In this document: positions 649 through 53,464 of the stretch, one piece after another
How the letters are laid out: every line of letters begins with the position of its first letter
How positions within the stretch are numbered: the stretch's first letter is position 1
NCBI GenBank assembly: GCA_963803145.1
Contig: CAWDLW010000015.1
Location: forward strand, 320,001 to 384,000
Source: Methanotrichaceae archaeon
Lineage (GTDB): Archaea > Halobacteriota > Methanosarcinia > Methanotrichales > Methanotrichaceae
Direction: 5' to 3'
DNA length: 64,000 bases
Notes under the pieces: model-generated
The model's database searches: none
The model's input: only the letters and a program-made list of their open reading frames with translations
What the model was told of the DNA's origin: nothing
Translations under genes and position numbers: made by a program

Positions 649-2106
649 TCACTGAATGGGCACGCGCACCGCCCGATTCCTTATGCACCCAGGATCATCT
701 GCCAGCAAGCTGGAGTTATAGTAGTATGCTCTGGCTCTGCAGCCTCCGCAGAAGTTCCTGTAACCGCAATTTCTGCAGTGGCCCGTGAAATTATCTCTGT
801 CCCTGAGAAGGTTGAACTCACTGCTGTTATCCCAGATCTCCCTGAAGCGATTTTCTCTTATGCTTCCAACTGGAATAGGCATGAAGACGCACGGCACAAC
901 AATGCCATCAGGCTGGATCCCCGCGTAGATTCTGCCCGCACCACAGCCACCAACGAACTCAGCTAACGTTTTTGCGGCGCATGCACCTCCTGCATAAAAA
1001 TGAGCTGGCGATACCGGCCCACCTTCAACGAGCAGGCATACTCTCGCGTACTGCGGAGCGGTCGACAGTACCTCAATCTTCCTGTGCCTCATCTCGTGAT
1101 AAAGGGTTCTCATGAACTCTTCCCGCTCATCAGGCGTCAGATCCTTTTCCTCGATATCCTTTGCCCTTCCAGTTGGTATGAAGTTGAAAAAGATAACTCT
1201 CATGAGCCCCATGCTTTCCGCCAGGTCCAGAATATCCTCTATTTCATTAAGCGTATCTTTGCTCATGAAAGTGGCCATTCCATTTGCCATCCCCAACTTT
1301 ACAGAGTTCCCTAATGCAGTTATAGCATGCTCCCAGGCTCCAGGCAGGCCTCTGAAATGATCATGCATCTCAGACCTTGCAGAGTCTACTGAGACCTCCA
1401 CATATTGTAGCCCTAGATCCTTAGCCTCATTCAGCTTGTTGATATCTGCAAACGTCCATCCGTTCGTTGCAACAGACGTGAATATTCCTCGTGAAGCCAG
1501 CTCTTTAACGATCCTCTTGAAATGGGGATGGATTGTTGGCTCTCCGCCGCTCAATGCGACTGCAGCGACTCCTGCCTCATCGAGCTGGTTTACAAGATCA
1601 AGCTTCTCCACTAGACTAAGCTCATTGGGAAGCGCCCCTGATGCCTGCTGATAGCAGTGTTCGCACCTGAAGTTGCAGCTGTTTGTGAAGTTCCAGACAA
1701 TTAGAAAAGGAGACGGCAATCTTTGGGGCACTGTTATTCCATATCTCGCTATGCCCTCCAATACCACACAGATGCCCCGTCTGATATGAGGCTCTTTGAG
1801 CACCGCATCCTTAACTAGATCCTCATTGCCGTTGGCCAACATGACTCCAAGCTTCATGAGCATCTTCACAGCCTGGCTCTGGAACCAGAGCTCCGGAGGC
1901 ATATCGAGATCCTCACCTGCGTATGCTCCCAGAGCCCAATATAGGGCTGGAAAAGATTTGTTGTTAATTTCATAACGCTTCAATGCAGTGCTCAATATCG
2001 CCCTAGAGACTGGGTTTCCAAGGGTTCTCTTAAATGCCCATAATGCAGTAGTTATACCGTTATCACTTTCAGCCTTTGACGGCTTGTAGATTCTACCACC
2101 TTCCAA
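649..2106 (-). CDS. Radical SAM/SPASM domain protein with N-terminal extension
   Basis: CNFRCEHC motif, SGGEP, SPASM cysteines CGAG...PC...CRNC...CGGCRARA...DPGC. Confidence 0.92.
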   Translation of the reverse strand: MEGGRIYKPSKAESDNGITTALWAFKRTLGNPVSRAILSTALKRYEINNKSFPALYWALGAYAGEDLDMPPELWFQSQAVKMLMKLGVMLANGNEDLVKDAVLKEPHIRRGICVVLEGIARYGITVPQRLPSPFLIVWNFTNSCNFRCEHCYQQASGALPNELSLVEKLDLVNQLDEAGVAAVALSGGEPTIHPHFKRIVKELASRGIFTSVATNGWTFADINKLNEAKDLGLQYVEVSVDSARSEMHDHFRGLPGAWEHAITALGNSVKLGMANGMATFMSKDTLNEIEDILDLAESMGLMRVIFFNFIPTGRAKDIEEKDLTPDEREEFMRTLYHEMRHRKIEVLSTAPQYARVCLLVEGGPVSPAHFYAGGACAAKTLAEFVGGCGAGRIYAGIQPDGIVVPCVFMPIPVGSIRENRFREIWDNSSEFNLLRDRDNFTGHCRNCGYRNFCGGCRARAYYYNSSLLADDPGCIRNRAVRVPIQ

Positions 2107-2309
2107 TAAGATTTACTAAAGTATATTCCTTTAAAGTGTTTAAAATTTTTGATAAACTATATTTATTAGCGCAAGTATACCTAACGTTCCATCAACTCAA
2201 AAACAGGCTCATGCTATATGGCAATCAGTAGAGTAATCTTACTAAGAATATATCGAACGGTAAAGCAACCTAAAAAGGTCAGGATGGAGATTAAATATGC
2301 TAACTAACC

Positions 2310-3425
2310 CTAATAACGGCTTCTCCTTGGAAGGAAATCTATGCCGTGCTTTGATATGATTCGTTTGTTCGTATCCTTTCCGAGGATTTGGGGAGATGAA
2401 ACACCCGTCACGACCAGCATAGTCCTCAGGGTATTCTCCAGATTAGGGTCTATCTGAGCGCCCCAGATTATCCTTGCATCGGGGTTGATCCTCTGATAAA
2501 CCTCCTCTACGACTGTCTCTGCCTCAGTGACAGTCATATCTGGCCCGCCTACTACATTTACCAGAGCAGATGTTGCCCCTGAGACGTCTACATCAAGTAG
2601 AGGGCTCCTCAATGCCTTAGATACGGAGTCTTTAGCCTTCTCCTCTCCATCGGCCTCGCCCATACCTATCATGGCGACTCCGCCGTTCGTCATGACTGTG
2701 CGCACATCTGCGAAGTCAAGGTTGATCAATCCAGGCCGTGTTATGAGCTCAGCTATTCCCTTCACTGAGCGCATAAGTACATCATCTGCCACCTTGAAGG
2801 CCGCCTGTAGAGGTAGATTCGGAGCAACATCCAGCAGCTTATCATTCGGCACCACAATTACAGTATCTGCCACATCCCTGAGCCTTTTTAGCCCTGCCTC
2901 TGCATTAGCCATCCTAATCGTGCCTTCTGCGCTGAACGGCAAGGTAACTATGGCTATGGTCAGGGCTCCAGCTTCCTTTGCAGCCTCAGCGACAACGGGA
3001 GCAGCACCAGTGCCCGTTCCGCCGCCGAGGCCGCAGGTGACAAAGATCATATCTGCTCCAGCCACGGCAGCTTTGATCTCGTCTATGTTCTCCTGAGCGG
3101 CCTCTTCTCCAATTGCCGGTAGGGAGCCAGCTCCAAGGCCACGTGTTGTGCGTCTTCCTATCAAAAAGCGCCGATCAGCATTTACATGCAGGAGGTGCTG
3201 TGCATCTGTGTTGATTGCAAATAGCTCAGCACCCTGAATGCCGCAGGCTGCAAGCCGATCTATTGTATTGGAGCCGCCTCCTCCGCACCCTATGACCCTT
3301 ATTACAGTAGTCAGTGCTTCAAGGACCTCAACGAGCTCTTCATCGCTTTGGACCGTACTCGATTGCTTTATGCCCTCCGAATCGGGCCTGCCGAGCGCCT
3401 CATCGATGATGTATTTCATCTCCAT
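2310..3425 (-). CDS. ftsZ: Cell division protein FtsZ
   Basis: [15 protein letters not shown] tubulin signature, INLDFADV. Confidence 0.97.
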
Positions 3426-3683
3426 CCCCTGACTTTTTATGGCTGATTCGATTTTATTAGTATATAGATTTTTTCATAGTTGGATGTGCATATTTAGTAG
3501 AATATTAAATAAGCTACATAAGTAATTGATGGATGAAGCTTAGACAAAAAGCGCCGATCAACCTCGGATAACACAGTTAGCACATTGTTAATATTATTAT
3601 CCAATGAGTTCATCCATCACGATTGATACGACGCATCTAAAGAAACAACGCCTCTAATGAGGCAGAATTTTATCCAAATATAC

Positions 3684-4067
3684 CTAAGACTTTAGCGCCC
3701 TGAGCTTTTCTATCTGCCTCAGGATTATCTCAGATTCCTTAGCCTTCTCCCCCTCCAAATAAGAGATTATCTCGGGCAAGCTTTTGTTCAGCCTGTAAAT
3801 TCTATATGGCCTTCCCTTTCCGGGGTTCTTCTCATCCCTCTCAGAGATCCAGTCCAACTTTCGAATCTCTCTCATGGCTATGCTAACTTCAGGCTGCCTG
3901 AGATCTGAGCCCATCTCGATCTCACGAGATGTAGCCTCATCCACCCCTGCAAGATACGTGAGAACCCTAGCCACGTTTCTTTTGAGTCCCACCTTCATCA
4001 GTATTGATGCAAACTCGTCGCGCTCGATTTTGAAGCCTTGCGCTGCTATCCTGTCCACAGCGGTCAC
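3684..4067 (-). CDS. Winged-helix transcriptional regulator (methanogen ArsR-like)
   Basis: SREIE...LRQPEVSIAM...GKGRP HTH/wing pattern. Confidence 0.8.
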   Translation of the reverse strand: MTAVDRIAAQGFKIERDEFASILMKVGLKRNVARVLTYLAGVDEATSREIEMGSDLRQPEVSIAMREIRKLDWISERDEKNPGKGRPYRIYRLNKSLPEIISYLEGEKAKESEIILRQIEKLRALKS

Positions 4068-39139: not shown

Positions 39140-39413
39140 CCCACATCCCGCAGGTAGGTCATCAAGAATTTGGATTTTTTTGATTATACAAATTGAGATT
39201 TAATATTTAATTATGCACCCATGAATGATAAAGATAAAAACAAAAAATAAAATATGGCCCAAGCATTCCAACAAGTCTTTAGAGAATCTGATGCTATAAT
39301 TATTGGAGGATATAATTCCGGCTCAAAACAAAGTGACCGCATCTGCGTGGTTTTGCAGAAAATCGTTATCAAGAAAAATGCTAAGCCTTAGAGTTTTACC
39401 TGCGGGATGTGGG
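39140..39413. mobile_element. 274-bp MITE (IS1634-like ends)
   Basis: 17-bp IR cccacatcccgcaggta / tacctgcgggatgtggg; 6-bp duplication attgaa; no ORF. Confidence 0.85.
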
Positions 39414-40075
39414 ATTGAAGATGCGCTGGATGTTCAATTCGCCAAGGCAGACTGATTGATACCATGATACTATGAGTAAAACCAATATGTTCTATTATTG
39501 TCCCTGGAATTATTTACTTTTAGGTTGTACACCTACCTCATTTCAATATAATAAGTTACACTTACTTTTGGGAGTTAACCAGCAATAAGTATCTTTCTCA
39601 AAAGCATCATTTTTTACTGCAAATGCTACTGCCCTGCATCCACTACAGTTCTTGATGTATAAGCAATTTGAGCATTTACCAACTTCTTTTCTATTTCTTA
39701 AATCATCAAGTAAACTAGAAGAATACCATATATCAAAAAATGTAGATTTTGCTAAATTTCCTATTATTATTGGCAATCTTCTACAAGCCATAACATCTTC
39801 ATTTGGCATTAAGGCAAGACCTGAGAAGCCTGCAGCACACCCACCCCCTATAATATCCTGGTATTCCTTAAATTCATCTTTTAATAATGTCCATAGCGGT
39901 CTTCTCATATCGATTTTCAATTTAGAACCAATTATAATTAATTCTATTTGTTTTTTAATTATGTTTCTATAAAGTTCATGCGTTTCCTCTGGATTCAACA
40001 TTAATTCTAAGAGTTTTTCTCCCCTTCCCTCGGGAACCAAAGGAGTGATTCCTAGTGTCGATACATTTAAAGAGT

Positions 40076-41606
40076 GAACATGCTCAATAGCAGGTAAAAT
40101 TAACCGACCTTTGGGATCATATCGGCTAATCTTGGCATAGAAAAGCTATTAGAATAAATATCCTTGACATACAAATAGAATCTAACCTTTTGCTTTCTGC
40201 AAGTATCAAGTATAGAAAGCAAATTCCCCCAGGCTGCTTTGCCTAACTCAGATCTAGTGCCATAGCTGATCTTTCTTTTTAGCACACCCTCGCGAACAGC
40301 GATTTCAGATCCATTGTTGTGAAGAGGGATCTCCGGAAAATCGAGCATAAGGAGCAACTTATCTCGATCGCTATGGGTCGATGCTATCCGCTTGTCCAGT
40401 TCGAAGTATCCTGTAGTCGTTGTAAACAGGGATTCAAACCTTCGTTCAATTAACCTTCTGAGATCAATCTTTGGTTGGGATTTGAATTTCTTCAATAAAT
40501 CGTAGAACTTCCAAAGACTGGCAATGAATTTTTCCAGAATTGATCGGTGAAGGTCCAAATAAGGTTTCAACTTAATGTAATGCTGTATCTCGTGTAACCA
40601 GCAGTGACCATGATGGCAAGCTATGCCATCATATTGATGAGCACTATCGGTTACCATCGGAGTAGGCGTCAAGACTCCATCCAATAATCCGAGCAGGTCT
40701 CTAATTGTTTCTCGCTTCCTGTTTTTCTCGATAAAATAAGTAGAAAATTCTTCATTGCCGATATAATGCATATCGCCATTCTTGCCTGAATGCCTTGCGC
40801 CAGTACTATCGGTTTGGAAATACTTGGCGCACCTCATACCGGTTTCAAATATTGCTGATTTCTCAGCTGAGAAGACTTCGCTCTTCTCTTTAGTCAGTAT
40901 ATTTGAGATTTCGCCTTCTGAGATGAAGATACCAAAATCAGTTAAGATACTATGGATCTTGTTTTCAGTCACTCTGCCTGCATAATAAAATGTAGCAATG
41001 AGCGCCTTTAGGTCGCTGCCAAATTGGGTGTTCTGAATTTCCTTTGGAAGCTCAGCATAATAATGCTTGTCCAGTGACTTGGAATAATAGTGTCCTCGCC
41101 GGTATTCGATATTATCAGTCTGTAGCTGGATATTTTGGATTATTACAGGTTCATACCCAAGGTATACAGCATCCGGCGGCAAGATATCGGACTCGATATC
41201 TAACCAAACTACTCGATTGATCTTTATCTTGGGATTCTTCGATCCCTTTGACCATTTCTTAGACTTCTCTGTTGATGCTTGTTTTGGTTCCAGATTAGGG
41301 ATGTTTGGCGCGATCTTCGGTTTGCCCTTCAAACCTTTTAATCTTGCTATTTCATCACCTTGTTGTTGGATTATCTCATTTTGCCGCCGTATCACTTGAG
41401 CTTGATATTCTATAAAGTTGAGCAACTTTCGGAATAGCTCTTTAGTTGCCTCCTTGTCATCGAAGTCGATCTTATCGATATCAAGGGTTATTATTTCTTC
41501 TTCAATTGCCTTATCCACAAGTATACTTATTTAGTTTTCTCAGCATTTTTAATTTCTGAACGATACGTCTTAATTTGCTGATCTGAACAAGCTATTGAGC
41601 ATGTTC
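40076..41606 (-). mobile_element. IS66-family (single-ORF, ISBst12-like) element
   Basis: IRs gaacatgctcaatagc / gctattgagcatgttc; 8-bp duplication taaagagt at 40068-40075 and 41607-41614. Confidence 0.92.
40100..41518 (-). CDS. IS66-family transposase
   Basis: N-terminal coiled coil, TDSTG, CWLHE, IPLHNNGSE.AVR, KRKISYGTRS. Confidence 0.9.
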   Translation of the reverse strand: MDKAIEEEIITLDIDKIDFDDKEATKELFRKLLNFIEYQAQVIRRQNEIIQQQGDEIARLKGLKGKPKIAPNIPNLEPKQASTEKSKKWSKGSKNPKIKINRVVWLDIESDILPPDAVYLGYEPVIIQNIQLQTDNIEYRRGHYYSKSLDKHYYAELPKEIQNTQFGSDLKALIATFYYAGRVTENKIHSILTDFGIFISEGEISNILTKEKSEVFSAEKSAIFETGMRCAKYFQTDSTGARHSGKNGDMHYIGNEEFSTYFIEKNRKRETIRDLLGLLDGVLTPTPMVTDSAHQYDGIACHHGHCWLHEIQHYIKLKPYLDLHRSILEKFIASLWKFYDLLKKFKSQPKIDLRRLIERRFESLFTTTTGYFELDKRIASTHSDRDKLLLMLDFPEIPLHNNGSEIAVREGVLKRKISYGTRSELGKAAWGNLLSILDTCRKQKVRFYLYVKDIYSNSFSMPRLADMIPKVG

Positions 41607-42395
41607 TAAAGAGTCACATAGCTCAATAAATTCCTCAATTTCTTGGTAATTATTTTTGTGAAATACAAACATAACTGCTATCTTAATACTAGCAGAATTT
41701 AGAAGTTCTATAGCCTTTAGCACTTTATTATAGACCCCTTTGCCTCTAATAAAGTCACAAGTGTCTTCTTTTGCACCGTCAAGACTTATTTGTATATTAT
41801 CTATTTTACTTTTTTTAAGCTTGGTGACAATAGTCTCGTCTATTAAAGTGCCGTTGCTCAATATATTTTTTCTTATTTCTGGAAATTTTTGGTTACAATA
41901 GTCCAATAAATTGAAGAACTCATCCCCAAGAATAAATGGCTCTCCTCCTGTAAAGGCAATCTTCGGAACTTTTTTTATTTTTTTACAGAATTTTGCGAAA
42001 TCTGATATTATCTTTTTTTTCCGATCAAAATTAGTTTCTGTTCCTATATATTCTAAATTCTGATAACAATGTTTACACTTAAGATTACATTTATCAGTAA
42101 GATGCCATTGTAAGATAAATGCCTGTTGAAACTGGTTTTGCTTTTCAAAATTATGGTTCATTCGGTCTCACCTAATTTAAATAAGACATATTTATTCATG
42201 CCACGAATAATTAAAGGTTCTCTATTCACAATTCAATCATTACAAAGAGATTGTTTTATTAAACTTTTCCTAACTATAGAGGATTCGCATGAGAACCACT
42301 TCATCGACACCGCGTAAGGAGCATGTCAGCCACATGCACCCGATCATTCTTCCTGATTTCATAGCCACCCCCGTTAAAGGAGGTCTATCCTGAAG

Positions 42396-42602
42396 TTATA
42401 AGCATCTCTGGCGTGTGGAATTGGTCGGTGACGATACAAATATCTTGTCTCTCGATGGATTGATCCAATTCGCTTGTAAGCACTTTGAGGAAAACGAATG
42501 GCAATCAATAATAAGGCAGCGCTCAAAATTGTTCCAATATTTTTTGCACTTATTCTCTAAGCGCCTCATTATACGGCCTGAAGCAGGTGGCACGCATTTC
42601 AT
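42396..42602 (-). pseudogene. N-formylglutamate amidohydrolase-like fragment
   Basis: CLIIDCHSF motif in a frameshifted context. Confidence 0.45.
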
Positions 42603-42734
42603 CCTTTTAATATGAAAATGATTTGATCCATATCTATGCAGTTTCCGCTTTTGCCACGAATATCCAGCCTTTTCAAGTTATCTCAATATCGATCGCGCTC
42701 GCTTCTTCAAGACTCTTTCGCAAATTGCTTCAGT

Positions 42735-42835
42735 TCCTATTATCATGATAAGGCTCACCTTTATTGAGGACAAAATAGATATCGATCAGTATACGATGCG
42801 CTATGGCAACAAGAGCCCTTATTTGCCACTCCTTC
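42735..42835 (-). pseudogene. IS110-family transposase C-terminal remnant
   Basis: Manual translation ALVAIAHRILIDIYFVLNKGEPYHD. Confidence 0.55.
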
Positions 42836-42844
42836 TGGCAATAT

Positions 42845-43435
42845 TGTCGTAGCAGTGGATTCAACCTGCGTAAAGGTCACGAGAAAGGAGAATAGGTAGG
42901 AGAGAAACATGGTACTGAGCCCAGAGGTTAGATCAAGTTACATATCGCTGTTGATATTGAGACGAAGAAACCAATATCTTTCGAGATCACTGATGAGAGA
43001 ACGCCTGACGTAAGATGGTCAGGCCTCAACTGAATGGCGTATTGATGAAGGATTCTATAATGGATACTGGCTATGATACTGAAGTCGTATTTAAATTTAT
43101 AAAGGAGTGACATTGGCTAATATCAACGTCAGAAAGAATGCTATTGTTAAGGCGGGTACTGAGATGGCTGAGTCAGTTCTGGAATTAAAGAAATATGGAT
43201 ATGGTAGCTGGAAAAAGATTCAAAAATATAGCAAGAGATGGGCAGCAGAAAGCTTCTTTTCTGTGATCAAAAGAATCTTTGGAAAAACTGTTAGATCTAA
43301 CTCTTTAGAAGACATGATAATGTAAGTAGCAGGCGGATAGCGCCTTTTAATATAATATTATCATGGTTAGATATTGAAATTTATTCATTAAATACATTAT
43401 CGTATATCAATAATTATTCAATTATCCAACACAGT
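42845..43435 (+). pseudogene. Degraded IS5-family (IS903-like) transposase with right end
   Basis: AVDST.VKV, KLHIAVD, DTGYD, YSKRW.AES.FS.IKR.FG with stops/frameshifts; end ttatccaacacagt. Confidence 0.8.
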
Positions 43436-43547
43436 GTGGTATATGAAGTCAACGGTTTCGGGACTCTACAATTTAGGAATTCTCAAGCGAAATATTCATT
43501 AATACAGACAACGAAAGTACAAAGGTTATAATTATTGGAGATTAAAA

Positions 43548-43649
43548 ATGAAATATGAAAAACCTGAAATCACGGAGCTAGAACTAAATGACGAAATAGA
43601 TGATGATGAAATAAGCATAAATTGCGAAGGGTGCGGATGTGGAACTTAG
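43548..43649 (+). CDS. Putative RiPP precursor peptide, 33 aa (not in ORF track)
   Basis: MKYEKPEITELELNDEIDDDEISINCEGCGCGT; ggag RBS at 43537-43540; Y-x-x-P-x-I RRE-binding leader motif; next to PqqD. Confidence 0.85.
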   Translation: MKYEKPEITELELNDEIDDDEISINCEGCGCGT

Positions 43650-43788
43650 TCAAATGGCGGCGATGCGCCCCACTGCAAGCAGCGGAGCATGCAAGGCACT
43701 GCCGCATAATTCACAGTTGGCTAACTGATCCCACCTACGTTGGATGAGAATGCTCTTTTATCCAAGCCACACCAAGCTGTAGGGTATT
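43648..43788 (-). mobile_element. ~140-bp non-autonomous IS200 derivative carrying both end hairpins
   Basis: Reverse complement starts aataccctacagcttggtgtgg and ends gcggcagtgccttgcatgctccgctgcttgcag...tttgact, matching both ends of the IS at 44889-45494. Confidence 0.75.
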
Positions 43789-43797
43789 ACTTTTAAA

Positions 43798-43830
43798 ATA
43801 AAATGCGAAAAACCTGAAATTAAGGAATAG
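43798..43830 (+). pseudogene. Vestigial second copy of the precursor leader
   Basis: ata aaa tgc gaa aaa cct gaa att aag gaa tag (IKCEKPEIKE*) versus atg aaa tat gaa aaa cct gaa atc acg gag. Confidence 0.65.
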
Positions 43831-43836
43831 GGACAT

Positions 43837-44088
43837 ATGGAAATTTCCAGGTCGATTAAGATGGTTAGGCGACTTGATAAAATACTACTATATTCGTCAG
43901 AGGAAGGAGATTTATTCCAGATAAATGAAATAGGCGCTTTTATTTTAGAAAAAATAAGAACGGGGAAAAATGAGAGAGAAATAGTTTTAGAACTGGAAAA
44001 AGAAACATATGAAAAAGAGGATAGAATAAAAGAGGATGTAAAAGAGTTTTTAGGAATCCTTAAAGAAAAAGGCATAATAAATGATTGA
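43837..44088 (+). CDS. PqqD family RiPP recognition element (RRE)
   Basis: LFQINEIGAFILEKI.....EIV.EL...Y......I..DV.EFL..L..KGII. Confidence 0.9.
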   Translation: MEISRSIKMVRRLDKILLYSSEEGDLFQINEIGAFILEKIRTGKNEREIVLELEKETYEKEDRIKEDVKEFLGILKEKGIIND

Positions 44089-44887
44089 TAGTAGATTAAT
44101 TGGTATTCTTGATAGAGATGTATTAATTCTTATAAAAATTTTGAAGAGGATGCAAAAGGTAGGTATAGAAAATTCACGGCAAACACAAGTTGCAGGTGCA
44201 TTATTGAAATTGGGTCTGGATAAAGAGGATGAATCTCTACAAAAAGTCCTTCAGGTATCCATACAAAGAACCGAGGAAAATAAAATCTCTGATATGAGCG
44301 AAGCAATAAATTGTCTGAAATTGTTTTCCTTTTATAAAAGATGTTTTGAAACAAGTGTAACGAAACTAGTAAATATTATTGTAGATTGTTTGAATGATGA
44401 TGGAGGATTGGGGAAATTCAAAGGAGATAGAAGTAGAATTCCCATTTGTTGGAGTTTATTAGAATCTTTTTACTACCTCAACAAGGAGGAAGATAATAAT
44501 ATTGTAGAAATTATTAATTGCATGGAAAGAGAGTGGTCGAATGATATGAAATTCGGTGGATTAAGCTATAAATGTGCTGGAATACTAATTGCAGCCAATT
44601 ACTATCCCCTATTTGATAATGAATTTATTGAGAAATCATTGAATTGGTTAATAAATGATCAATCCGAAGATGGTGGATGGAGTGCCAAGAAAGGTTTTTC
44701 TGTTGGTTCAGTTCCGTCTTATACTGGATTAGCATTGCGGGCACTAACAAACTATGGAAAAAGCGATGAAGTTGAAAATACAATTTCACATGGAATAGGT
44801 TGGCTAATAGCAACAAGGCAAAGGGGTTTATGGAAAGAACATCCGATAGAAAGAGCATTAATAGAAGTAGATTTGTTTTTATTTTAA
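44081..44887 (+). CDS. Prenyltransferase / squalene-oxidosqualene cyclase repeat (alpha/alpha barrel) protein
   Basis: LNDDGGLG, WLINDQSEDGGW, YTGLALRAL, GIGWL...Q.GLW QW-type repeats; overlaps the RRE gene. Confidence 0.8.
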   Translation: MIDSRLIGILDRDVLILIKILKRMQKVGIENSRQTQVAGALLKLGLDKEDESLQKVLQVSIQRTEENKISDMSEAINCLKLFSFYKRCFETSVTKLVNIIVDCLNDDGGLGKFKGDRSRIPICWSLLESFYYLNKEEDNNIVEIINCMEREWSNDMKFGGLSYKCAGILIAANYYPLFDNEFIEKSLNWLINDQSEDGGWSAKKGFSVGSVPSYTGLALRALTNYGKSDEVENTISHGIGWLIATRQRGLWKEHPIERALIEVDLFLF

Positions 44888-44888
44888 C

Positions 44889-45494
44889 GAATACCCCACA
44901 GCTTGCTGTGGGGATGGCAAACTAACAGGGGATTAATAAGGTATTTAGTTCTAGCAGGCGCTATCTGAATTAATGCTGGAATTGCGGCATGCAAGCCATT
45001 GTGTTTACAGAATCAGATATCATATGGTGCTTTGTGTAAAATATAGAAAGAAATTACTTATCGATCAGGAAAGGATAGACCTTTTTAAGAATGTATGTAT
45101 TGAGATTGGTGAAAGATATTGTTTTGAATTTGATGCTATTGGGACAGATGGAGACCATGTCCACGTTTTTGTTGGATCAGCGCCAAAATATGCGCCATCT
45201 AAGGTTATGCAAGTTATAAAAAGTATAACTGCAAGGCAAATTTTCAGAGCCTTTCCTGAAATCAGAAAACAACTTTGGGGTGGAGAGTTTTGGAGTGATG
45301 GTGGCTATATTGGTACCGTAGGTGAGGGTATAACTGCTGAAATTATAAGAAATTATATTGAAAGGCAAGGATCGATTGAGGAGAAAGAAAGCTATAATCA
45401 AATGAAGCTGTTTGAATTTGAATAAGCGGGGCTATTGCGGCGGCGCCTCGCATGCCCCGCAGCTTGCTGCGCGGGTGCGCCGCCGCAGTTTGAC
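44889..45494 (+). mobile_element. IS200 element with subterminal hairpins
   Basis: Left hairpin ccccacagcttgctgtgggg; right hairpin ccccgcagcttgctgcgcggg ending tttgac. Confidence 0.88.
44973..45425 (+). CDS. tnpA: IS200/IS605 transposase TnpA (HUH)
   Basis: YH.V.CVKYR, DHVH, WSDGGY, catalytic Y in YIERQG. Confidence 0.95.
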   Translation: MLELRHASHCVYRIRYHMVLCVKYRKKLLIDQERIDLFKNVCIEIGERYCFEFDAIGTDGDHVHVFVGSAPKYAPSKVMQVIKSITARQIFRAFPEIRKQLWGGEFWSDGGYIGTVGEGITAEIIRNYIERQGSIEEKESYNQMKLFEFE

Positions 45495-45551
45495 TCAATC
45501 AAATTTCATCCCAGCATAATAATAACATTTAATACGAATTATTATTATAGT

Positions 45552-46316
45552 CTATTCAGTCTTCCACCAATCTCGATTTCCTGCAATCGCATCAGTTAGA
45601 AATTTCTTATGTCTTTCAATTTCTTCATAGATTTCTCCATTCTTACAAATGAGGCCATGTCCTGGTACTAATATTTCGATCTTCATCTCTTTTAATTTTT
45701 CAAGCGATCGTATCCATAGTTCCCACAATTTATGGTTTCCGAAACGCAATGTAGGTAAATATTTTGAGTAAATCAAATCGCCTACATAAATTACTCTCTC
45801 TTCAGGCATATAAACCGAAATATTAGTATCAGTATGTCCAGGCGTCAGAATTAGTTCCACTTCGATTCCACCTACACTTAATGATGTATCTTTTTCGATA
45901 AATTTATCTGGATTACAAACGATAGTCTTAGCAAAAAATTTTTCTATTTTCTTGGAGTCCTTCTGCTCTTTGAATCCTGATGAGAGTATATCGTTCATCC
46001 GGTTAATCATCGATTCCATATTCATATGTTTATTATAAGCAATCATATTATATGCAATAATTTCGGCTCCGATTTCTTTGAAAATTGAATTGCCAAGCGT
46101 GTGATCAAAATGGAGTTCAGTATTGATCAAATACTTTATTTTATTCTGGGGTGCACTTACCTTAGCGTAACCTAAAATTGTTTGAGCTGATAGATAATTA
46201 AATGCGGAGTCGATAATCAATGTCTCTCCATCGCCTGTTATAAATCCGGCATTTACACTGAAACCAGTTTCATGAGCCAAACCAGTTACCGCAAAACAAT
46301 GTCTACTAAGTTCCAT
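45552..46316 (-). CDS. MBL-fold metallo-hydrolase
   Basis: TELHFDHTLGN, GHT, GDL, PGHG. Confidence 0.9.
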   Translation of the reverse strand: MELSRHCFAVTGLAHETGFSVNAGFITGDGETLIIDSAFNYLSAQTILGYAKVSAPQNKIKYLINTELHFDHTLGNSIFKEIGAEIIAYNMIAYNKHMNMESMINRMNDILSSGFKEQKDSKKIEKFFAKTIVCNPDKFIEKDTSLSVGGIEVELILTPGHTDTNISVYMPEERVIYVGDLIYSKYLPTLRFGNHKLWELWIRSLEKLKEMKIEILVPGHGLICKNGEIYEEIERHKKFLTDAIAGNRDWWKTE

Positions 46317-47037: not shown

Positions 47038-48120
47038 TAGTTAATCATTGAGCTTATTGCCCTATAGATACATTTAATAATTAATGCGTGAAAATACATA
47101 GGCATGGGTAGAAAACCTATAATAATTAGGCATATATCAAAGATAGACCTTGATAAATTATATAAAAAAGAGACTGATCTAAGGATTAAGGAACGGTTAT
47201 TGGCAATAATACATTTATATGAAGGGAAAAACGTATATGAGGTAGCTGATATTTTAAAAAGGGGCGAGAGGACAATAAAATATTGGTTAAGCAGATGGAA
47301 TAATCAAGGCTATAATGGATTGACACCAAAGAATAGAAATGGCAAAAAGCCAAAGATGTCTCTTGATGAATGGGATAGAGTTATTAAAGAAATTGAAGAC
47401 AAAGGAATGACGATAAAAGACGTATTAAAATATGTAAGGGATACAAGAGGTATAGATTTTTCATATAAATATGGCTGGCGAATTTTAAGAGTAGTGAAAA
47501 AAGTTAAGTATGGGAAACCATACATCAGAAATGAAAAGAGGCCTGCAGATGCAGAAAGTTTTTTAAAAAAGGATAAAATCAGTGCTGACCACTGTTACTG
47601 ATCCTGTTATAGGATTTCTTGATGAAAGCTCTTTACAACAGCGCCCTAATACACGTAGAGTCTTAAACACTCATTTAATAAATTATAAACCTGGAAAGGT
47701 TAGATCAAGAACTATTTTTGGATTTATAGCATTAAATGGCAATGATGAGGTTATGGTTTCCAACTCCTCTAAGAAGGAAGCGTTGATGGCATTTGCTCAA
47801 AATATAAGAAATAATAATATTATGAGGCCAATTTGTATACTTTTAGATAATGCTAGAATTCATTTGGCCAAGAAATTTAGAAAACTAGCTGAGGAAATCG
47901 ATATTCACTTAATTTATAATATCCCCTATTCACCAGATTTGAATCCTATAGAATTCGGTTGGAAGGATTTCAAAAGAGAGATCGCCAAATACACTGATTT
48001 CGATGAAGCTATTATAGCTAGCCAAGATTGCGCTTTAGAAATATTTTATTCCAAAAAGGATGGATATTCAAAGTCCTGGGTGGAGCGATTTCTTAGTGCA
48101 AAAAGCTAGGAGATTAACTA
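47038..48120 (+). mobile_element. IS630-family element, copy A (1083 bp; two ORFs, probable frameshift at ttttttaaaaaag)
   Basis: IR tagttaatc / gattaacta with flanking TA; ORFs 47104-47601 (HTH) and 47582-48109 (DES, LDNARIH, YSPDLNPIE). Confidence 0.92.
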
Positions 48121-48154
48121 TAATAACGACAGGGCAAGTACCCTTAGATGAGAT

Positions 48155-48634
48155 ATGGTCGACGATAATGTGGCTGATACGAAGATATATCTTGAATTGG
48201 ATGATGAACTTAAAAACGTTCTAGAAGATAACGAACTAGATATTTCCGATTTACTGCAAAACGAGGGAATTGAAGCAGTTGTCAAGCCAGGGACGGCACC
48301 GTACCAGACAGAAGATAATGATGCCAGAGATAAGGAACCAATTTCGATCATTATAGCCTGTAGTATTGCGATAGTTCCTATAGTATGGGCTATCTCCAAA
48401 GGATTAAGTACATTGTACAATAATAAGCCCATAGTTGAAAAAATTAGCGAACTTGTGGAGTTAAGGGACGCGAATGATAACATATTGATGAATAAAGACG
48501 GAAATCCAATTTTTAAAAAAATAGAAAGGTATGTGATACTTCAACCTAAATTAGAAGAAAAGCTGGAGATTAAGGCAACGTTTGATCTTAGAAATGGAAT
48601 CGTCATCCAAATCAGTTCAGAAACGAAAAGCTAA
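48155..48634 (+). CDS. Small membrane protein upstream of caspase (EACC1-like architecture)
   Basis: Acidic N-terminus, one hydrophobic helix ISIIIACSIAIVPIVWAIS, beta-rich C-terminus; first gene of the caspase operon. Confidence 0.65.
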   Translation: MVDDNVADTKIYLELDDELKNVLEDNELDISDLLQNEGIEAVVKPGTAPYQTEDNDARDKEPISIIIACSIAIVPIVWAISKGLSTLYNNKPIVEKISELVELRDANDNILMNKDGNPIFKKIERYVILQPKLEEKLEIKATFDLRNGIVIQISSETKS

Positions 48635-48667
48635 CTGCGTAGTGATCCAGTTTAGAGTTTAATTAAG

Positions 48668-49879
48668 GTGGCTGCAATGGCTTATAAGGCATTTATCATT
48701 GGTATTAACACACTAGGCTTGAAATATTGTGATAGAGATGCAGATCTGATGAAATATGCCCTCTCAAAACGCGGCTATAATGTAAATGTAATAAATAAAG
48801 AAGCGAAAAAGTATGATATCATGCCGAAATATATCGATATATTGGGAGATTGCCGAATAGTAGATACCTTAATTTTCTTTTTTTCAGGTCATGGCAAACC
48901 CATTGGGCGCGAACTTTTTTTATTTACCAAGGGAGATGGTTCGGACGAATTAAACAAGATTCCAATTAGTGAGATTTTGGGGCCTTTGGAACGGTGCGCC
49001 GCCAAAAACAAACTTGTAATCTTAGATTGTTGCCGGGCAGGAAGACTAAATGGTAGTGGTGAGTGGAATTGTCCTGAACCGGGGGATTTCTATCGCATTC
49101 TTGTTGCTGCGAATCCTCTAGAAAAGGCCAAAGAGATCGATGATTTGCGAGCAAGTTTTTTAACGCATAAAATTCATTCAGCACTTACAAATCCTCCCGA
49201 AGCTATCTTGGACAAAGGAAAAATTCGAATAAACAACCTTTCTGATTGGCTACGTAAGCAGGCGGACTTACATAATGTGTCATCATTGATAAAAGTCCCC
49301 CGACCATATCTGATTGGAGCCGATAGGGCGGATTTTGAGATCTGCATTCTTGAAAAGTCACTTATCGAGCCAATGGAAGGCAAAACCATAATCAATGATA
49401 GGCAATTGATTGATGAAATAAGAGAATGGAAAGTGATTCATACAAAATCGCAATCCCTTCAAGATCATCTAGCCGAAATGATTCGACATCTTCATATATC
49501 CCGATTTGAACCCTTTGGTTCAAAGGGTTTTAATAATTCAATGCAAAGCGCGGAAAATGAATGGATACGATGCGCTTCTTATTTTAAAGAGATACTGGAG
49601 GATGTTAAGGGATTTCGCTACATTGCGGCGAATGAGGCAGTTCTACAGTGTTTACCATACGCTACAGAACCATCTATTAAACCTATATTGGATCGGATTA
49701 GAATAGCAAAGAGCCCTGAAGACGCTTTAGATATCCAACGACTGATAGTCGATATTAAACAAGTTATAGATGAAATGCTTCATGTAGCTGATAAACAAAT
49801 TGTCTTATTAGTTGATAAGCTAGCAATTAAATCATCGTCCGAAACGATTGAGGCAAATCATGTCGTTACAGAAGCTTGA
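48668..49879 (+). CDS. Caspase-like peptidase C14 with C-terminal helical domain
   Basis: AFIIGIN, L.YC..DA, FFFSGHG (His) and ILDCCRAG (Cys) catalytic dyad. Confidence 0.9.
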   Translation: MAAMAYKAFIIGINTLGLKYCDRDADLMKYALSKRGYNVNVINKEAKKYDIMPKYIDILGDCRIVDTLIFFFSGHGKPIGRELFLFTKGDGSDELNKIPISEILGPLERCAAKNKLVILDCCRAGRLNGSGEWNCPEPGDFYRILVAANPLEKAKEIDDLRASFLTHKIHSALTNPPEAILDKGKIRINNLSDWLRKQADLHNVSSLIKVPRPYLIGADRADFEICILEKSLIEPMEGKTIINDRQLIDEIREWKVIHTKSQSLQDHLAEMIRHLHISRFEPFGSKGFNNSMQSAENEWIRCASYFKEILEDVKGFRYIAANEAVLQCLPYATEPSIKPILDRIRIAKSPEDALDIQRLIVDIKQVIDEMLHVADKQIVLLVDKLAIKSSSETIEANHVVTEA

Positions 49880-52800
49880 AAGTAATTATAGAAATTTTTT
49901 GAACTCATATAAATCTGAGAAACAGCTGGACATCCTTGAAGCTAAGAATCTTCTTAATACTTTTCGACAATCTGGCGAATTTATCAGCAGCCCAGAGGAA
50001 AGAGAGATTTTATCTGTATGGTGCAGGACAATTGCAGACATAATCTTTGAGAATACAGGGGAATATCTTCCTGTGAGAATCTTTCCTTTAGATAACATCA
50101 CAATATCATCTGAACCTGCCTCGATCCCCCTCCCTCGCCAGATACCTCCACCGCCAGCTGACTTTAAAGGCCGTAAGGACGAAATCATAAATATCCTATT
50201 ATGCTTCGATAAGGTAAGACCCATCATCGGTCTGCGTGGTATGGCTGGCGTTGGCAAGACTGCACTAGCACTTGTTTTGGCAGAGAGGCTAAAAGACCGT
50301 TTTCCTGATGGGAATCTCTTTCTAAACCTGCAAGGAACGACTAGTAATCCCCTTAGAGCAGCTGATGCTATGGCCCAAGTCATCCATTCGTATTACCCAA
50401 CTAAACGCCTGCCAGAGAGAGAAGACGAGTTGCGTGGGCTATATCTCTCAGTTCTGTCTGACAAACGAGTACTGCTTTTATTAGACAATGCGAAGAATAG
50501 AGAGCAGGTTGAGCCGTTGTTGCCTCCTTCAAGCTGCGCCGTTTTAATCACCTCAAGAAATAAATTTTCTTTGCCAGGCTTAACGGCACGAGATCTGGAT
50601 GTTTTGAGTTCTGCAGAAGCTCGTGAACTGCTCCTCGAAATCGCCGGACGGATTGGCGATCGATCTGACAATTTGGCAAATCTTTGCGGAAATCTTCCCC
50701 TGGCCCTTCGAAATGCTGCAAGCGTCTTGGCCGAGAGGGGAGACATAGATGTGGCTGATTACGAACGCTGCCTAAGTGACAAAAAGATGAGGCTAGATCT
50801 AGTATATGCTTCATTCAGTTTGACTTACGATCTTTTGTCTCCAGTGAAAAAGAAGCATTGGTGTCGTCTTTCGGTCTTTCCGCAAGACTTTGACCTAAAA
50901 GGTGGAACAGCAGTTTTGAAGATGGCTCTTGAACCATCTGCTAAGGTATTGAGCGACTTAGTTAAATGTAGTCTCGTGGATTTTATTCGCCCCGTAGATT
51001 CCGGAGAGGGACGTTACAAGCTGCATGACTTGGCTCGCCTTTTCGCTGAATCACGCCTGGAATCCAAGGAGCGTGACGATGCTGAGCATTGCCATGCTAA
51101 GTATTACTTGATAATGCTCTCTTCTGCGGAAACTCTCTACAATAAGGGCGGGGAAAATGTCATGGAAGGGCTGAAAATTCTCGATCGAGAATGGGCGAAT
51201 GTGCAGGCCGGACAGGCATTTGCCGTAAAAAATGCCAAAAAAAATGCGGATGCAGCTGCCCTCTGCATTGAATACGCTGATCCAGTGGGTATCCTTTCAT
51301 TGCGATTGCATCCCAACGATCTAATTCACTGGCTTGAGGTTTCTTTGGATGCAGCTAAGCAATTAAAAAGATCAGCTCAAGAAGGCATCATTCTAACGAA
51401 GATAGGATATACCTACTTCCAACTGGGCAAGGTTCAAGAGGCAATCCATCTCCATGAGAAGGCACTGACTATAAGCCGCAAGATCGGTGCCAGACGAGGT
51501 GAAGGAACCGTTCTGGGAAACCTGGGACAGGCCTATGCTGCTCTGGGCGAGACACGGAAGGTCATCGAATATTCTGAACACGCGCTGGCCATCGACCGTG
51601 AAATCGGAAACAAAAAAGGGGAAGATATCCGCTTGGGCAATCTGGGCTGTGCTTATTATGATTTAGGCGAGATGCATAAGGCCATCGAGTACTACGAGCA
51701 GGCGCTGACCATCGACCACGAGATTGGAGACAGAAGGAGCGAAGGAAAGCATCTGGGCGATATGGGATTGGCTTATGCCAGTCTGGGAAAGACTCGCGAA
51801 GCCATCGAGTACTACAAGCAGGCCTTGAATATTGCTTGCGAGCTCGGCGACCTAAGGACTAAAGGAAGACACATGGGCAATTTGGGCGGTGCTTATTACG
51901 ATCTAGGCTATATTCGTAAAGCGATCGAGCACTATGAGCAGGCGCTGGCCATCAGCCGCGAGATCGGGAACCCATGGATTGAAGGAGAAAATCTATGTAA
52001 TTTAGGGAATGCCTATGCTGCCTTAGAGGATACTAACAAGGCAATTATAGTTAATCCACGTAATTTTTACCTCATAGATACCCTTAAATAATTAATATAC
52101 GATATAGCCGTTCATGGGCAGGAAACCTGTAATTGTAAGACATATCTCGAAGGTAGAATTAGATCAATTGTATAAAGATGAGAGAAACATAAGAATTAAA
52201 GAACGGCTACTAGCGATAATACATTTATACGAAGGAAAGAATGTATATATAGTAGCTGATATTCTTAAACGAAGTGAAAAGACAATAAAGAATTGGCTAA
52301 GCGATTGGAACAAACAAGGATATGATGGATTGATACCACAGAATAGAAACGGCAAAGAACCAATGATATCTTTTGATGAATGGGATAAAATTATCGAAGA
52401 GATTGAGGACAAAGGAATGACTATAAAAGAGGTAATAAAATATGCAAAAGACACAAGAGGCGTAGAATATTCGTATAAAGGTGGTTGGAAGATTTTAAGA
52501 TCAATAAAGAAAGTCAAATATGGTAAACCATATATTAGAAATAATAAGAGGCCTGTTAATGCAGAAAGTTTTCTAAAAAAAGGATAGATTCAGTAATAAC
52601 AACAGTCAAAGAACCTATTATTGGATTCCTTGATGAAAGCTCTTTGCAACAGCGACCTAATACACGCAGGGTTTTAAACACCCATATGCTAAATTATCAA
52701 CCTGGAAAAGTTAGGTCTAGAACTGTTTTTGGGTTCATTGCATTGAATGGAAATGATGAAGTTATGGTCTCTCACTCATCCAAGAAAGAAGATTTAATGA

Positions 52801-53464
52801 TCTTCGCCCAAAAATTGAGAAGTAACAATATTATGAGACCAATATGTATTGTCCTAGATAATGCTAGAATACATCTAGCTAAGAAGTTTAGGGCATTAGC
52901 CCACGAACTTGATATCCATTTAATATATAACGTGCCATATTCCCCTGATTTAAATCCTATAGAGTTCGGTTGGAAGGATTTTAAAAGAGAGATATCAAAA
53001 TATACTGATTTTGATGAAGCTATTGAGGATGCCCAAGATTGCGCTTTACAAATATTTTATTCCAATAAAGATGGATACTCTAAGTCTTGGATAAAGCAGT
53101 TTATAAGGTAAAAAGTTGGGAGAATGACTATAAATACTATGAGCAGTCGCTTGGGATTGTTCGCATGATCGGGGATCGAAAGAATGAGGGCAATGCTCTT
53201 TGTAACCTTGGAAAGGTCTATGCCGCCCTTGACGAAGTCTGCAAAGCGATCGAGCACTACGAGCAATCGTTAGAGATCTTTCGCCGGATCGAATACTGCC
53301 GAGGAGAAGGTGATGCCCTATTCAACATGAGCTTAGCGCATGAAAAGATTGGCCATCGACAGGAGGCAATCAATCATGCGAAGGAAGCACTAAGAATTTT
53401 CGAGCAGATCGAAAGTCCATATTCTGAGAAAGCGCGGCAAAAGTTGGCGGAATGGAAAGGATAA
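49860..53464 (+). pseudogene. NB-ARC/STAND NTPase with TPR array (NLR-like), interrupted by IS630 (839 aa when rejoined)
   Basis: FKGR, GMAGVGKT Walker A, LLLLDNA Walker B, ITSR, NLPLAL, LHD; many TPRs; rejoins in frame as KAIKYYEQSL. Confidence 0.92.
52048..53130 (+). mobile_element. IS630-family element, copy B (1083 bp, diverged from copy A)
   Basis: Ends tagttaatc / gaatgacta with TA duplication; ORFs 52114-52587 and 52644-53111. Confidence 0.92.

Follow-up and report, generated by a model that had tools for sequence, protein, structure and literature searches.

The 64,000-nucleotide stretch of a Methanotrichaceae archaeon genome analyzed here (contig CAWDLW010000015.1, positions 320,001 to 384,000; hereafter, the window) carries, at 39543–45532, directly downstream of the formylmethanofuran dehydrogenase genes, a gene set that we interpret as one copy of a rare, conserved four-component cassette for peptide maturation of the type that yields peptides made by the ribosome and modified after translation (RiPPs), inactivated recently in this genome. 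We put the probability of this interpretation at roughly 0.7. The four components are a short Cys-rich precursor peptide, a PqqD-family protein of the RiPP recognition element (RRE) type, a radical S-adenosylmethionine enzyme with a SPASM domain (rSAM/SPASM), and an (α/α)6 toroid protein. The order on the plus strand is a 33-aa open reading frame (ORF), the PqqD gene, and the toroid gene; the rSAM/SPASM gene lies on the minus strand, divergent from these and in two pieces. All of the elements listed in a preliminary description of this DNA were recovered at the positions given there by ORF analysis and by scans against Pfam and NCBIfam. The cassette genes are as follows (numbers beginning with L denote related loci, and bit scores are given with the cut-off of the model).

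43548–43649 (+): precursor peptide gene, 33 aa; leader M-K-Y-E-K-P-E-I..., C-terminal core CEGCGCGT; GGAG 10–13 nt upstream
43837–44088 (+): PqqD-family RRE, 83 aa, lasso-B1-like; PF05402, 50.8 bits (cut-off 23.4)
44081–44887 (+): toroid ORF, 268 aa; PF13243 SQHop_cyclase_C, 29.7 bits (cut-off 26.1)
41607–42161 (−): N-terminal half of the rSAM, 185 codons, CxxxCxxC; PF04055, 93.8 bits (cut-off 29.5); 57% identity to L047:6375–7415
39543–40067 (−): C-terminal half of the rSAM, 174 codons and stop, SPASM cysteines; PF13186, 30.3 bits (cut-off 21.5); 64% identity to L047:6375–7415

Conservation of the cassette

A metagenome scan returned 29 loci, of which the nine with strong toroid matches (E-values of 8e-154 to 2e-46) were analyzed and the 20 with weak, partial matches were dropped. 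Together with the window, the nine loci represented about seven lineages, with close pairs formed by the window and L046, L047 and L052, and L049 and L050. The PqqD gene was located directly upstream of the toroid gene in all nine strong loci, and one to three short ORFs were found upstream of the PqqD gene, again in nine of nine. A homologue of the rSAM, with 43–58% identity to the N-terminal half in the window, adjoined the peptide genes in six loci, divergently in five and co-directionally in one. In the other three (L046, L049, and L050), the sequence available upstream of the peptides was shorter than 200 nt, too little for the rSAM to be seen, and all six informative loci therefore had it. 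The preliminary description had considered that homologues of the toroid protein and the rSAM might never co-occur with similar peptides or RREs. The outcome was the opposite, with the four genes together in every informative locus at toroid identities of 34–84%, and together again in a second clade at 26%.

The second clade was found by a class-wide search of 392 genomes with an intact rSAM as the query. Four genomes of one genus encoded enzymes with 39–40% identity to the L047 enzyme. In these genomes, the rSAM gene was followed by the PqqD gene and then by a gene for a 53-aa peptide (Y-E-K-P-L-F, C-terminal CxxCxxCxxC) in all three contigs extending past the rSAM, and a toroid homologue was present in both of the contigs extending further (hhalign probability, 99.8%; E-value, 2.8e-30; 26% identity).

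L079 (G184) 1405–3842, L089 2496–3899, also L078 and L080: clade-2 loci (rSAM, PqqD, 53-aa peptide, 300-aa toroid)

In clade 2, the toroid gene was followed by a glutamine-dependent asparagine-synthase-type gene (TIGR01536, 351 bits; cut-off 267), which scored 152 bits against the lasso cyclase model (cut-off 525). Its product could amidate the peptide, or it could be unrelated. The recurrence of the cassette in clade 2, despite another gene order and strong divergence, is the strongest evidence that the four components work together.

These comparisons of gene content indicate that the four components are a functional unit. The alternative is that there is no such unit, with an AhbD/NirJ-like tetrapyrrole rSAM lying by chance near an unrelated PqqD–toroid pair and the 33-aa ORF being a chance frame in AT-rich DNA. 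The rSAM scores nearly equally on AhbD/NirJ and peptide-maturase models, AhbD-like rSAMs (~34% identity) are near-universal in the class (286 of the 392 genomes at E ≤ 1e-40), and in the window the rSAM is 1.4 kb off on the other strand, all of which would fit chance co-location. Against this, the specific rSAM clade was adjacent in six of six informative loci and in clade 2, the peptide motifs were present in 19 of 19 ORFs, and the 1.4-kb gap consists of debris of insertion sequences (IS) that is absent from relatives. Chance co-location is contradicted by the comparative data, and we regard it as extremely improbable.

Members of the toroid family are very rare. Among 5.8 billion protein clusters searched with the toroid sequence, 22 hits were obtained: the protein of the window itself, one weak match, and 20 relatives at E ≤ 1.7e-44. 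The family was found in none of the 104 other genomes of the same taxonomic family, of which 64 are ≥90% complete with ≤5% contamination. When a single genome was scanned by pattern for each prokaryotic species, 38 loci were obtained, all of them weak, partial QW-repeat matches (best E-value, 3e-9; ≤81 residues), mostly in Planctomycetota. The wider toroid family comprised 470 representatives at E ≤ 1e-10, and the ESM Atlas contained generically named clusters of small proteins with squalene-hopene cyclase (SHC) or prenyltransferase domains (best score, 0.96; 282 aa; 110 members), which we treat as a lead and not as evidence.

Precursor peptides and the PqqD-family protein

The precursor set consisted of 19 peptides of 27–33 residues, that is, the window peptide and 18 ORFs at the same position in the nine related loci. 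An N-terminal M-x-Y-x-x-P-x-[L/I/F] motif was present in all 19, as was CxxCxC, located 1–4 residues from the C-terminus within a 7–10-residue C-terminal core. With both motifs repeated in 18 other ORFs from nine loci, the window peptide ORF is more than a chance frame. The window peptide was 62% identical to three tandem peptides of L046, and the peptides of both loci end with G-C-G-[T/D/S]. Two core types were usually neighbors, one with three Cys residues (often C-x-H-C-x-C-x) and one with four (ending C-G-[T/S/D]), and both were present together in six of the nine related loci. The window peptide and six peptides from L046, L047, L053, and L054 matched no NCBIfam family at E ≤ 0.01, and the clade-2 53-aa peptide matched none at E ≤ 1e-5. 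Since a GC-rich repeat element lies at the stop codon of the window peptide gene, creation of the Cys-rich tail by that element was considered as well; it was rejected, because L046 and eight other element-free loci encode CxxCxC tails.

The orthologues of the PqqD protein could be aligned over their full length in 10 of 10 cases. The closest solved relatives of the RRE profile were TbiB1 (E-value, 2.6e-10; full length), 9x90_B, and TfuB1, all of which are lasso B1 proteins. The best NCBIfam match was the lasso PqqD chaperone model lasso_PqqD_Strm (NF033530; 33.3 bits, under the cut-off of 70), and NF033536 scored 22.6 bits, under its cut-off of 80. Lasso B1 proteins read a YxxPxL-type leader motif. 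Based on the kinship to lasso B1 proteins and the invariant motif in the 19 peptides, the PqqD protein probably binds its cognate YxxPxL leader, and the earlier reading of the peptide's N-terminus as a Y-x-x-P-x-L/I leader for an RRE is supported.

The likeness to lasso systems extends to gene arrangement. The PqqD gene overlaps the start of the toroid gene by 8 nt in the window, and a stop/start overlap was present in all 10 loci, including the window. The RRE gene is translationally coupled to the next enzyme gene. Lasso B1 is likewise translationally coupled to B2. The cassette and lasso systems therefore share the RRE profile kinship, the best NCBIfam match, a YxxPx[LIF] leader (19 of 19), and this coupling. 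They differ in that the cassette is without the B2 transglutaminase-type protease and clade 1 is without the Asn-synthetase-like cyclase; neither a lasso B2 protease nor a lasso cyclase was among the Pfam and NCBIfam hits of the neighbors in the window, L046–L048, L051, L053, and L054. Moreover, the RRE stays under the lasso cut-off (33.3 vs. 70 bits), a short tail rich in Cys stands in place of a lasso core, and the partners are an rSAM/SPASM and a toroid.

The radical SAM/SPASM enzyme

The C-terminal half of the rSAM in the window also matched the SPASM model TIGR04085 (35.5 bits; cut-off 27). Alignment with the intact homologues of L047, L054, and L051 showed that every cluster-binding Cys residue is kept in both halves. 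The rSAM is without an RRE domain of its own. An intact homologue scored 187.6 bits on the ACGX-system model, 168.7 on AhbD, 167.1 on NirJ2, and 164.4 on SbtM, with cut-offs of 350–500. The ACGX-system model (TIGR04340) was the best curated rSAM model for the L047, L051, and clade-2 enzymes (178–188 bits), with NirJ2 higher for L054; the window halves scored 77.4 and 107.2 bits on TIGR04340, the cut-off of which is 400 bits. The closest solved sequences were PqqE (6c8v; E-value, 1.6e-13), SkfB, CteB, and SuiB, at 42–54 bits.

The ACGX system (TIGR04340) and SynChlorMet (ScmD/E/F) are akin to it as uncharacterised peptide-associated SPASM systems, partly of anaerobes and archaea. The cassette differs from them in scoring below half of the 400-bit cut-offs, in its ScmD score (23.6 vs. 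100), and in peptides that match no NCBIfam model. The maturases of sactipeptides and ranthipeptides (SkfB, CteB, and PapB) are also SPASM rSAMs acting on Cys-rich ribosomal substrates, and SkfB and CteB are among the closest solved relatives of the cassette enzyme. However, the PapB, StsB, and AlbA models gave 75–102 bits for the cassette rSAM, compared with cut-offs of 340–850, and none of these systems involves a toroid.

In methanogens, CrpC of Methanococcus voltae shows that ranthionine links are installed by a SPASM rSAM (PMC13692751). That paper assigns CrpC to the TIGR04463 family, with a fused RRE and a substrate protein in which a 17-residue motif is repeated 10 times, and the screen that it describes covered proteins of ≥100 aa only. 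CrpC is therefore distinct from the cassette enzyme in rSAM family, in its fused RRE, and in its large repeat-protein substrate (PMC13692751). The terms prenyl, squalene, PqqD, toroid, and terpen do not occur in PMC13692751, and squalene, prenyl, terpen, archaea, and toroid do not occur in PMC12710340.

Cofactor biosynthesis offers a further parallel. PqqA/D/E and MftA/B/C, of pyrroloquinoline quinone (PQQ) and mycofactocin biosynthesis, resemble the cassette in that a small peptide, modified at its C-terminal end, is combined with a chaperone of the PqqD family encoded on its own and with a SPASM rSAM that has no RRE. The PqqE and MftC models remained far under their cut-offs for the cassette rSAM (101 vs. 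381 and 130 vs. 265 bits), and the precursors are unrelated. The PQQ and mycofactocin systems also differ from the cassette in that the latter has Cys-rich multi-paralogue precursors and a toroid, and no other pqq or mft genes.

The cassette might, like those of PQQ and mycofactocin, turn a peptide into a cofactor or metal chelator used inside the cell and not into a secreted bioactive peptide. A redox or metal-binding group would then arise from the thiol-rich C-terminal tail, with the toroid binding or finishing the product. The combination of a small peptide, a PqqD-type chaperone, and an rSAM/SPASM is the logic of PQQ and mycofactocin biosynthesis. No exporter, immunity gene, or dedicated leader peptidase was conserved in the nine loci or in clade 2; PqqE (6c8v; E-value, 1.6e-13) is the closest solved rSAM, and the mycofactocin maturase model reached 129.8 bits (cut-off 265). 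In addition, the three-Cys cores are often C-x-H-C-x-C, resembling a metal site, and the fold list of the toroid included transcobalamin (Z 19.1) and intrinsic factor (Z 18.7), both of which carry cobalamin. However, divergent precursor paralogues within a locus, with two core types in six of nine loci, are typical of RiPP products and unusual for cofactors. The very patchy spread (none of 104 sister genomes) and the local loss argue against an essential cofactor, and no dependent enzyme was conserved nearby. We consider a cofactor or chelator unlikely, though worth keeping in view.

The toroid protein

The preliminary description had called the toroid a prenyltransferase-fold enzyme. It belongs to the superfamily shared by terpenoid cyclases and prenyltransferases, with scores on PF00432 (Prenyltrans; cut-off 26.5) of 25.5 bits for the window protein, 31.3 for the L047 homologue, and 26.7 for the L054 homologue. 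The name itself needs revision, because the protein is nearer to SHC-like domains (Z 23–24 vs. 16.3; SHC E-value, 7.6e-16), and the predicted structure is better described as an SHC-like single (α/α)6 domain. The AlphaFold2 model (pLDDT, the predicted score of the local distance difference test, 93.0; predicted template modeling score [pTM], 0.91) contained 12 helices, and its fold was compared by Foldseek and, separately, by an all-against-all aligner (VIA rows). The best Foldseek matches were drimenyl-diphosphate synthase and SHC, with E-values of 2e-6 to 2e-5 and TM-scores of 0.63–0.68. In the all-against-all alignment, SHC-type chains were at the top (8paj, Z 23.9, with a root mean square deviation of 2.9 over 257 aligned residues; 1gsz, Z 23.4; and 8zg0, Z 23.1), and lower ranks were held by MstE (Z 20.9), generic (α/α)6 enzymes (Z of approximately 20), the cobalamin carriers, and the farnesyltransferase β subunit (Z 16.3). 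The toroid profile matched SHC residues 448–593 (E-value, 7.6e-16), with QW-type D-G-G-W repeats.

SHC and class II terpene cyclases (among them the single-domain SHC-like protein 8paj, drimenyl-diphosphate synthase, and MstE) are thus the best fold matches, with Z of 20.9–23.9, root mean square deviations of 2.9–3.1, and 252–257 of 268 residues aligned. The cassette protein differs from these cyclases in lacking DxDD and in being a single unit of ~270 aa whose gene accompanies those of an RRE, a peptide, and an rSAM; there are no isoprenoid genes near it.

A family alignment of 21 sequences contained 41 invariant columns, including E30, R33, D116, S118, R119, Y163, K164, S210, T215, W251, E253, and H254 (window numbering), and E257 was conserved in at least 90% of the sequences. 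Most of the invariant residues persist in the clade-2 protein. According to the predicted secondary structure, the invariant columns cluster in the loops between helices 1–2, 5–6, 7–8, 9–10, and 11–12. Judging from (α/α)6 topology and this secondary structure, rather than from coordinates, the conserved loops would all be on one face of the barrel.

Structural prediction of the complex of the toroid with the PqqD protein scored 0.32, compared with 0.00 for the best of three controls, which weakly supports an RRE–toroid contact. In its benchmark, 116 of 157 solved complexes attained this mark, as did 2 of 215 mismatched pairs; at values of ≤0.60, it was reached by just 18 of the 157 solved complexes and by both mismatches. 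The toroid–PqqD runs agreed in at least 86% of contacts, with a partner pLDDT of at least 78.

The superfamily of the toroid invites the view that it is a peptide S-prenyl transferase lipidating one or more C-terminal cysteines, by analogy with CaaX and Rab prenylation, and that the product is, as the preliminary description suggested, a thioether-crosslinked, lipidated archaeal peptide. Besides membership in the terpenoid-cyclase/prenyltransferase 6-hairpin superfamily, with PF00432 scores of 25.5 (window) and 31.3 (L047) against 26.5, the farnesyltransferase β subunit could be aligned at Z 16.3. Prenylated proteins carry cysteines near the C-terminus, and those of the precursors are 1–4 residues from it. 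Archaea are rich in isoprenoid diphosphates, and the invariant Arg, Lys, Tyr, and His residues of the toroid loop face could bind a diphosphate.

Several observations argue against prenylation. The toroid is nearer to SHC-type domains than to the prenyltransferase β subunit, by the Z-scores and the profile match given above. No α-subunit-like helical-repeat partner was conserved in all loci, and no isoprenoid-diphosphate synthase was conserved in the neighborhoods. Asp, Cys, and His form the zinc ligand set of protein prenyltransferase β subunits; D116 and H254 of the toroid are invariant, but C165 is not, and no universally conserved Asp/Cys/His set is kept across both clades. We judge prenylation by the toroid to be quite unlikely.

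Prenyltransferase β subunits and LanC share the broad 6-hairpin architecture of the toroid and act on peptide Cys thiols; the PF00432 score is borderline. They are less similar to the toroid than SHC-type domains are, and no conserved zinc-ligand set, α subunit, or LanC family match was found for the toroid. A LanC-like role would make the toroid a cyclase analogue in which Cys adds to an electrophile generated on the peptide by the rSAM or by an APH-type kinase acting on Ser/Thr, yielding lanthionine-like rings. LanC enzymes are α/α toroids, and class III cyclase domains are without zinc ligands. In L047 and L054, the rSAM is in tight linkage with genes for an APH kinase and a methyltransferase, and the cores there are Ser/Thr-rich next to Cys; the window, in which no such kinase was detected with the L047 kinase as the query, has Gly at those core positions, which is in keeping with the idea.

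Other observations oppose it. The toroid had no LanC-type Pfam or NCBIfam match at E ≤ 0.01, no lyase was found, Ser/Thr is not conserved in the core, and in most loci whose flank is long enough (L048, L051, and the window) the kinase was missing. No LanC chain appeared among the Foldseek rows shown (ranks up to 50) or the 50 aligner rows, a result that leaves room for a relationship. Taken together, a LanC-like role is very unlikely.

Proposed maturation pathway

Under the preferred interpretation of a conserved four-component cassette, the PqqD protein would bind the YxxPxL leader of the precursor and present its Cys-rich tail to the rSAM/SPASM, an enzyme that itself lacks an RRE domain. The rSAM/SPASM would then modify the cysteines, most likely by intramolecular thioether links of the sactionine or ranthionine type, as suggested by the precedent of related maturases. 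The toroid may perform a second, RRE-coupled step on the same leader-bound peptide, either as a tailoring or cyclizing enzyme or as a binder of the product; the gene coupling, strict co-occurrence, and residue conservation point to such a role. A more specific version is that an SHC-fold toroid was recruited by a lasso-type RRE, so that the cassette represents a new archaeal RiPP class in which a Cys core is radical-crosslinked and an isoprenoid or other group is joined or cyclized. We advance this version as a tentative one with a low probability.

Several points weigh against the cassette interpretation as a whole. Most of the loci are on short metagenome contigs of unknown organisms, and several are close kin, so that the counts overstate their independence. 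The rSAM scores are approximately equal for peptide maturases and tetrapyrrole-modifying SPASM enzymes, and all are far under the cut-offs; the model scores therefore do not indicate which reaction is catalyzed. The core residues that separate or adjoin the cysteines vary, being Gly in the window and Ser, Thr, His, or Arg elsewhere, and thus no fixed thioether acceptor is evident. A DxDD general-acid motif defines SHC-type class II terpene cyclases, and there is no DxDD column in the 21-sequence toroid alignment, in which the invariant Asp residues are D116, D155, and D197. The sole well-conserved Cys of the toroid, C165 (≥90% in clade 1), is replaced by Ala in 2 of the 21 sequences and by Gly in clade 2. 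Without DxDD and with C165 not universal, there is support neither for class II cyclase chemistry nor for a zinc site of the prenyltransferase type. The support for the RRE–toroid contact is weak, and we infer every chemical step of the cassette. No protease, exporter, or immunity gene was conserved with the cassette in the related loci, which is unusual for a secreted antimicrobial RiPP. Finally, because the local copy is broken, no conclusion can be drawn on a present-day role in this organism.

Disruption of the cassette in the window

The local copy has been damaged by mobile elements. The affected features are as follows.

40076–41606 (−): IS66-family element, 1531 bp, splitting the rSAM gene; transposase ORF at 40100–41518 (PF03050, 58.1 bits)
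40068–40075 and 41607–41614: 8-bp target duplications of the IS66-family element, read directly in the sequence
42162–43547 (no strand): expanded intergenic region with degraded mobile-element remnants; IS5-family fragment at 43107–43325 (NF033579; E-value, 2.1e-12)
43648–43803 (no strand): GC-rich hairpin-bearing repeat element, ~155 nt, at the peptide stop codon; IS200/IS605-associated type
43794–43830 (+): second-precursor remnant, ~10 codons of the 5′ end; direct repeat D1; 88–91% identity to the starts of the L046 peptide genes
44879–45496 (+): IS200/IS605-family unit near the toroid 3′ end; tnpA ORF at 44973–45425; boundaries uncertain by a few nt
45497–45532 (+): displaced toroid 3′ tail, 11 codons and stop; junction compared with L046

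The reading frame of the rSAM is interrupted in this genome by the 1531-bp IS66-family element, which has perfect 16-nt terminal inverted repeats and three further full-length copies in the genome at 99% identity. Its transposase scored 134.5 bits on NF033517, under the cut-off of 180, and it is without accessory TnpA/TnpB ORFs. An 8-bp target duplication is typical of IS66. Removal of the element and one 8-bp duplicate brings the two rSAM halves into frame. Since the halves are then in frame, retain 57% and 64% identity to the L047 enzyme, and keep every cluster Cys, the insertion is recent, and the rSAM gene carries no other lesion.

Between the rSAM and the peptide, the preliminary description had noted a distance of 1.4 kb across IS debris, with the rSAM on the other strand; this proved accurate, the two genes being separated by 1386 nt from start to start, whereas the corresponding spacing in intact relatives is ~70–170 nt. 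Besides the IS5 fragment, the gap contains unique degraded sequence, with only a single partial match in the rest of the genome, at 67% identity.

The ~155-nt repeat element at the peptide stop codon has a GC content of 48%, compared with 30–36% for its neighbors, and five diverged copies occur in the genome at 73–82% identity. Its two hairpin-like motifs resemble the ends of the neighboring IS200/IS605 unit, and it may be a non-autonomous IS200/IS605-dependent element. The 34-nt second-precursor remnant has a mutated start codon and an early stop and is fused by deletion to the upstream region of the PqqD gene. One intact precursor gene remains in the window, compared with at least three in tandem in L046.

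At the other end of the cassette, the tnpA of the IS200/IS605 unit scored 135.5 bits on NF033573 (cut-off 55), and two further 100%-identical copies in the genome cover 44879–45494. The unit is absent from the syntenic L046, the closest relative (toroid protein identity, 84%; DNA identity, 88.6%). It brings an immediate stop, by which the last ~11–12 codons of the toroid gene are cut off. The split of the rSAM that had been described was thus confirmed and assigned to an IS66-family element, although it is not the sole damage: there are three mobile-element lesions and a deletion, on account of which the cassette copy in this genome is probably non-functional.

The base composition sets the cassette apart, as the earlier designation of an AT-rich island implied. 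GC content is 29.5–33% in the cassette genes and 36% in the peptide gene, whereas the window as a whole has 44.7% and the neighboring fwdCDB genes have 51%. The local island is a decaying passenger that was probably acquired horizontally, and active IS elements have hit it recently. The adjacent formylmethanofuran dehydrogenase subunits C (284.5 vs. 130.65 bits) and B (622.2 vs. 327.8 bits) are above the NCBIfam cut-offs, and the host is therefore a methanogen-type archaeon.

Accessory genes and other neighbors

Accessory genes were found near the cassette in part of the related loci. An APH-family kinase and a class I methyltransferase were closely linked to the rSAM in the diverged loci L047 and L054, the cores of which are rich in Ser/Thr. 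A second radical SAM gene was also present near the cassette in these two loci, and the two copies did not group together.

L047 3736–6378 and 10239–11829; L054 3604–6312 and 10671–11225: accessory regions (kinase, methyltransferase, GNAT, second radical SAM)

A GNAT acetyltransferase was encoded in four loci. An all-helical, repeat-like protein of ~190 aa, which had no Pfam or NCBIfam match, was encoded beside the toroid in L047 (8819–9370, −), L048 (1762–2367, +), and L051 (4314–4901, +). None of these accessory genes (kinase, methyltransferase, GNAT, or helical protein) was universal among the loci, and none was present in the window. The L047 APH kinase as a query had no detectable relation to DUF6206 of L051 (E-value, 1.9) and gave no homologue in the window's genome, although the empty outcome of such a search shows little.

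A separate pair in the same class was observed in L082 (G136), where a SPASM rSAM with 37% identity to the L047 enzyme is encoded beside a 232-aa DUF2207_C protein with a Gly/Cys-rich tail (13–711 and 1471–2508). This pair may be a different Cys-rich substrate system.

Three further features flank the cassette in the window. At 39140–39413, where AT-rich DNA separates fwdB from the 3′ end of the rSAM, a pair of 40-nt inverted repeats with 75% complementarity and 194 nt between them may represent a miniature transposable element. A metallo-β-lactamase-fold hydrolase at 45552–46316 (−) is convergent with the toroid gene, as is its 85%-identical counterpart in L046 (1725–2453, −); it was not seen in the remaining related loci. 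At 47104–53111, two IS630-type units (helix-turn-helix and DDE_3 ORFs; 47104–48109 and 52114–53111) bracket a Peptidase_C14 caspase-domain protein (48668–49879) and a 747-aa NB-ARC/TPR STAND NTPase (49848–52091), which looks like a mobile defense or cell-death module.

Novelty and biological meaning

RiPP pathways with an rSAM/SPASM and a PqqD-type protein are well known, but in curated libraries and the searchable literature their pairing with an SHC-like toroid or with M-x-Y-x-x-P-x-L...CxxCxC precursors is not. No curated NCBIfam family was reached at cut-off by the rSAM, the RRE, the toroid, or the peptide. In the literature searched, no description was found of an rSAM/SPASM, a PqqD/RRE, an SHC-like toroid, and a precursor in combination; subscription-only papers and supplements were outside this scope, and a prior bioinformatic mention is possible. 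These results agree with the earlier impression that the combination is unlike any characterised RiPP class. We rate the precursor family as new and the toroid partner as having a fold for which no link to peptide maturation has been made so far. Because the four parts stay together across very deep divergence, the toroid is a strong candidate for a new activity that either modifies or binds peptides.

For this genome, the message is more ordinary, namely that of a recently inactivated gene set in an island. The family extends into archaea in at least part of its range: the contig of one relative encodes Gins23, an archaeal replication protein, and both the window and clade 2 belong to a class of methanogens in which few RiPPs have been characterised. 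If an SHC-fold toroid does act on the peptide, its enzyme type would be one that had not been observed to act on peptides before, and the cassette would represent a new RiPP class in archaea.

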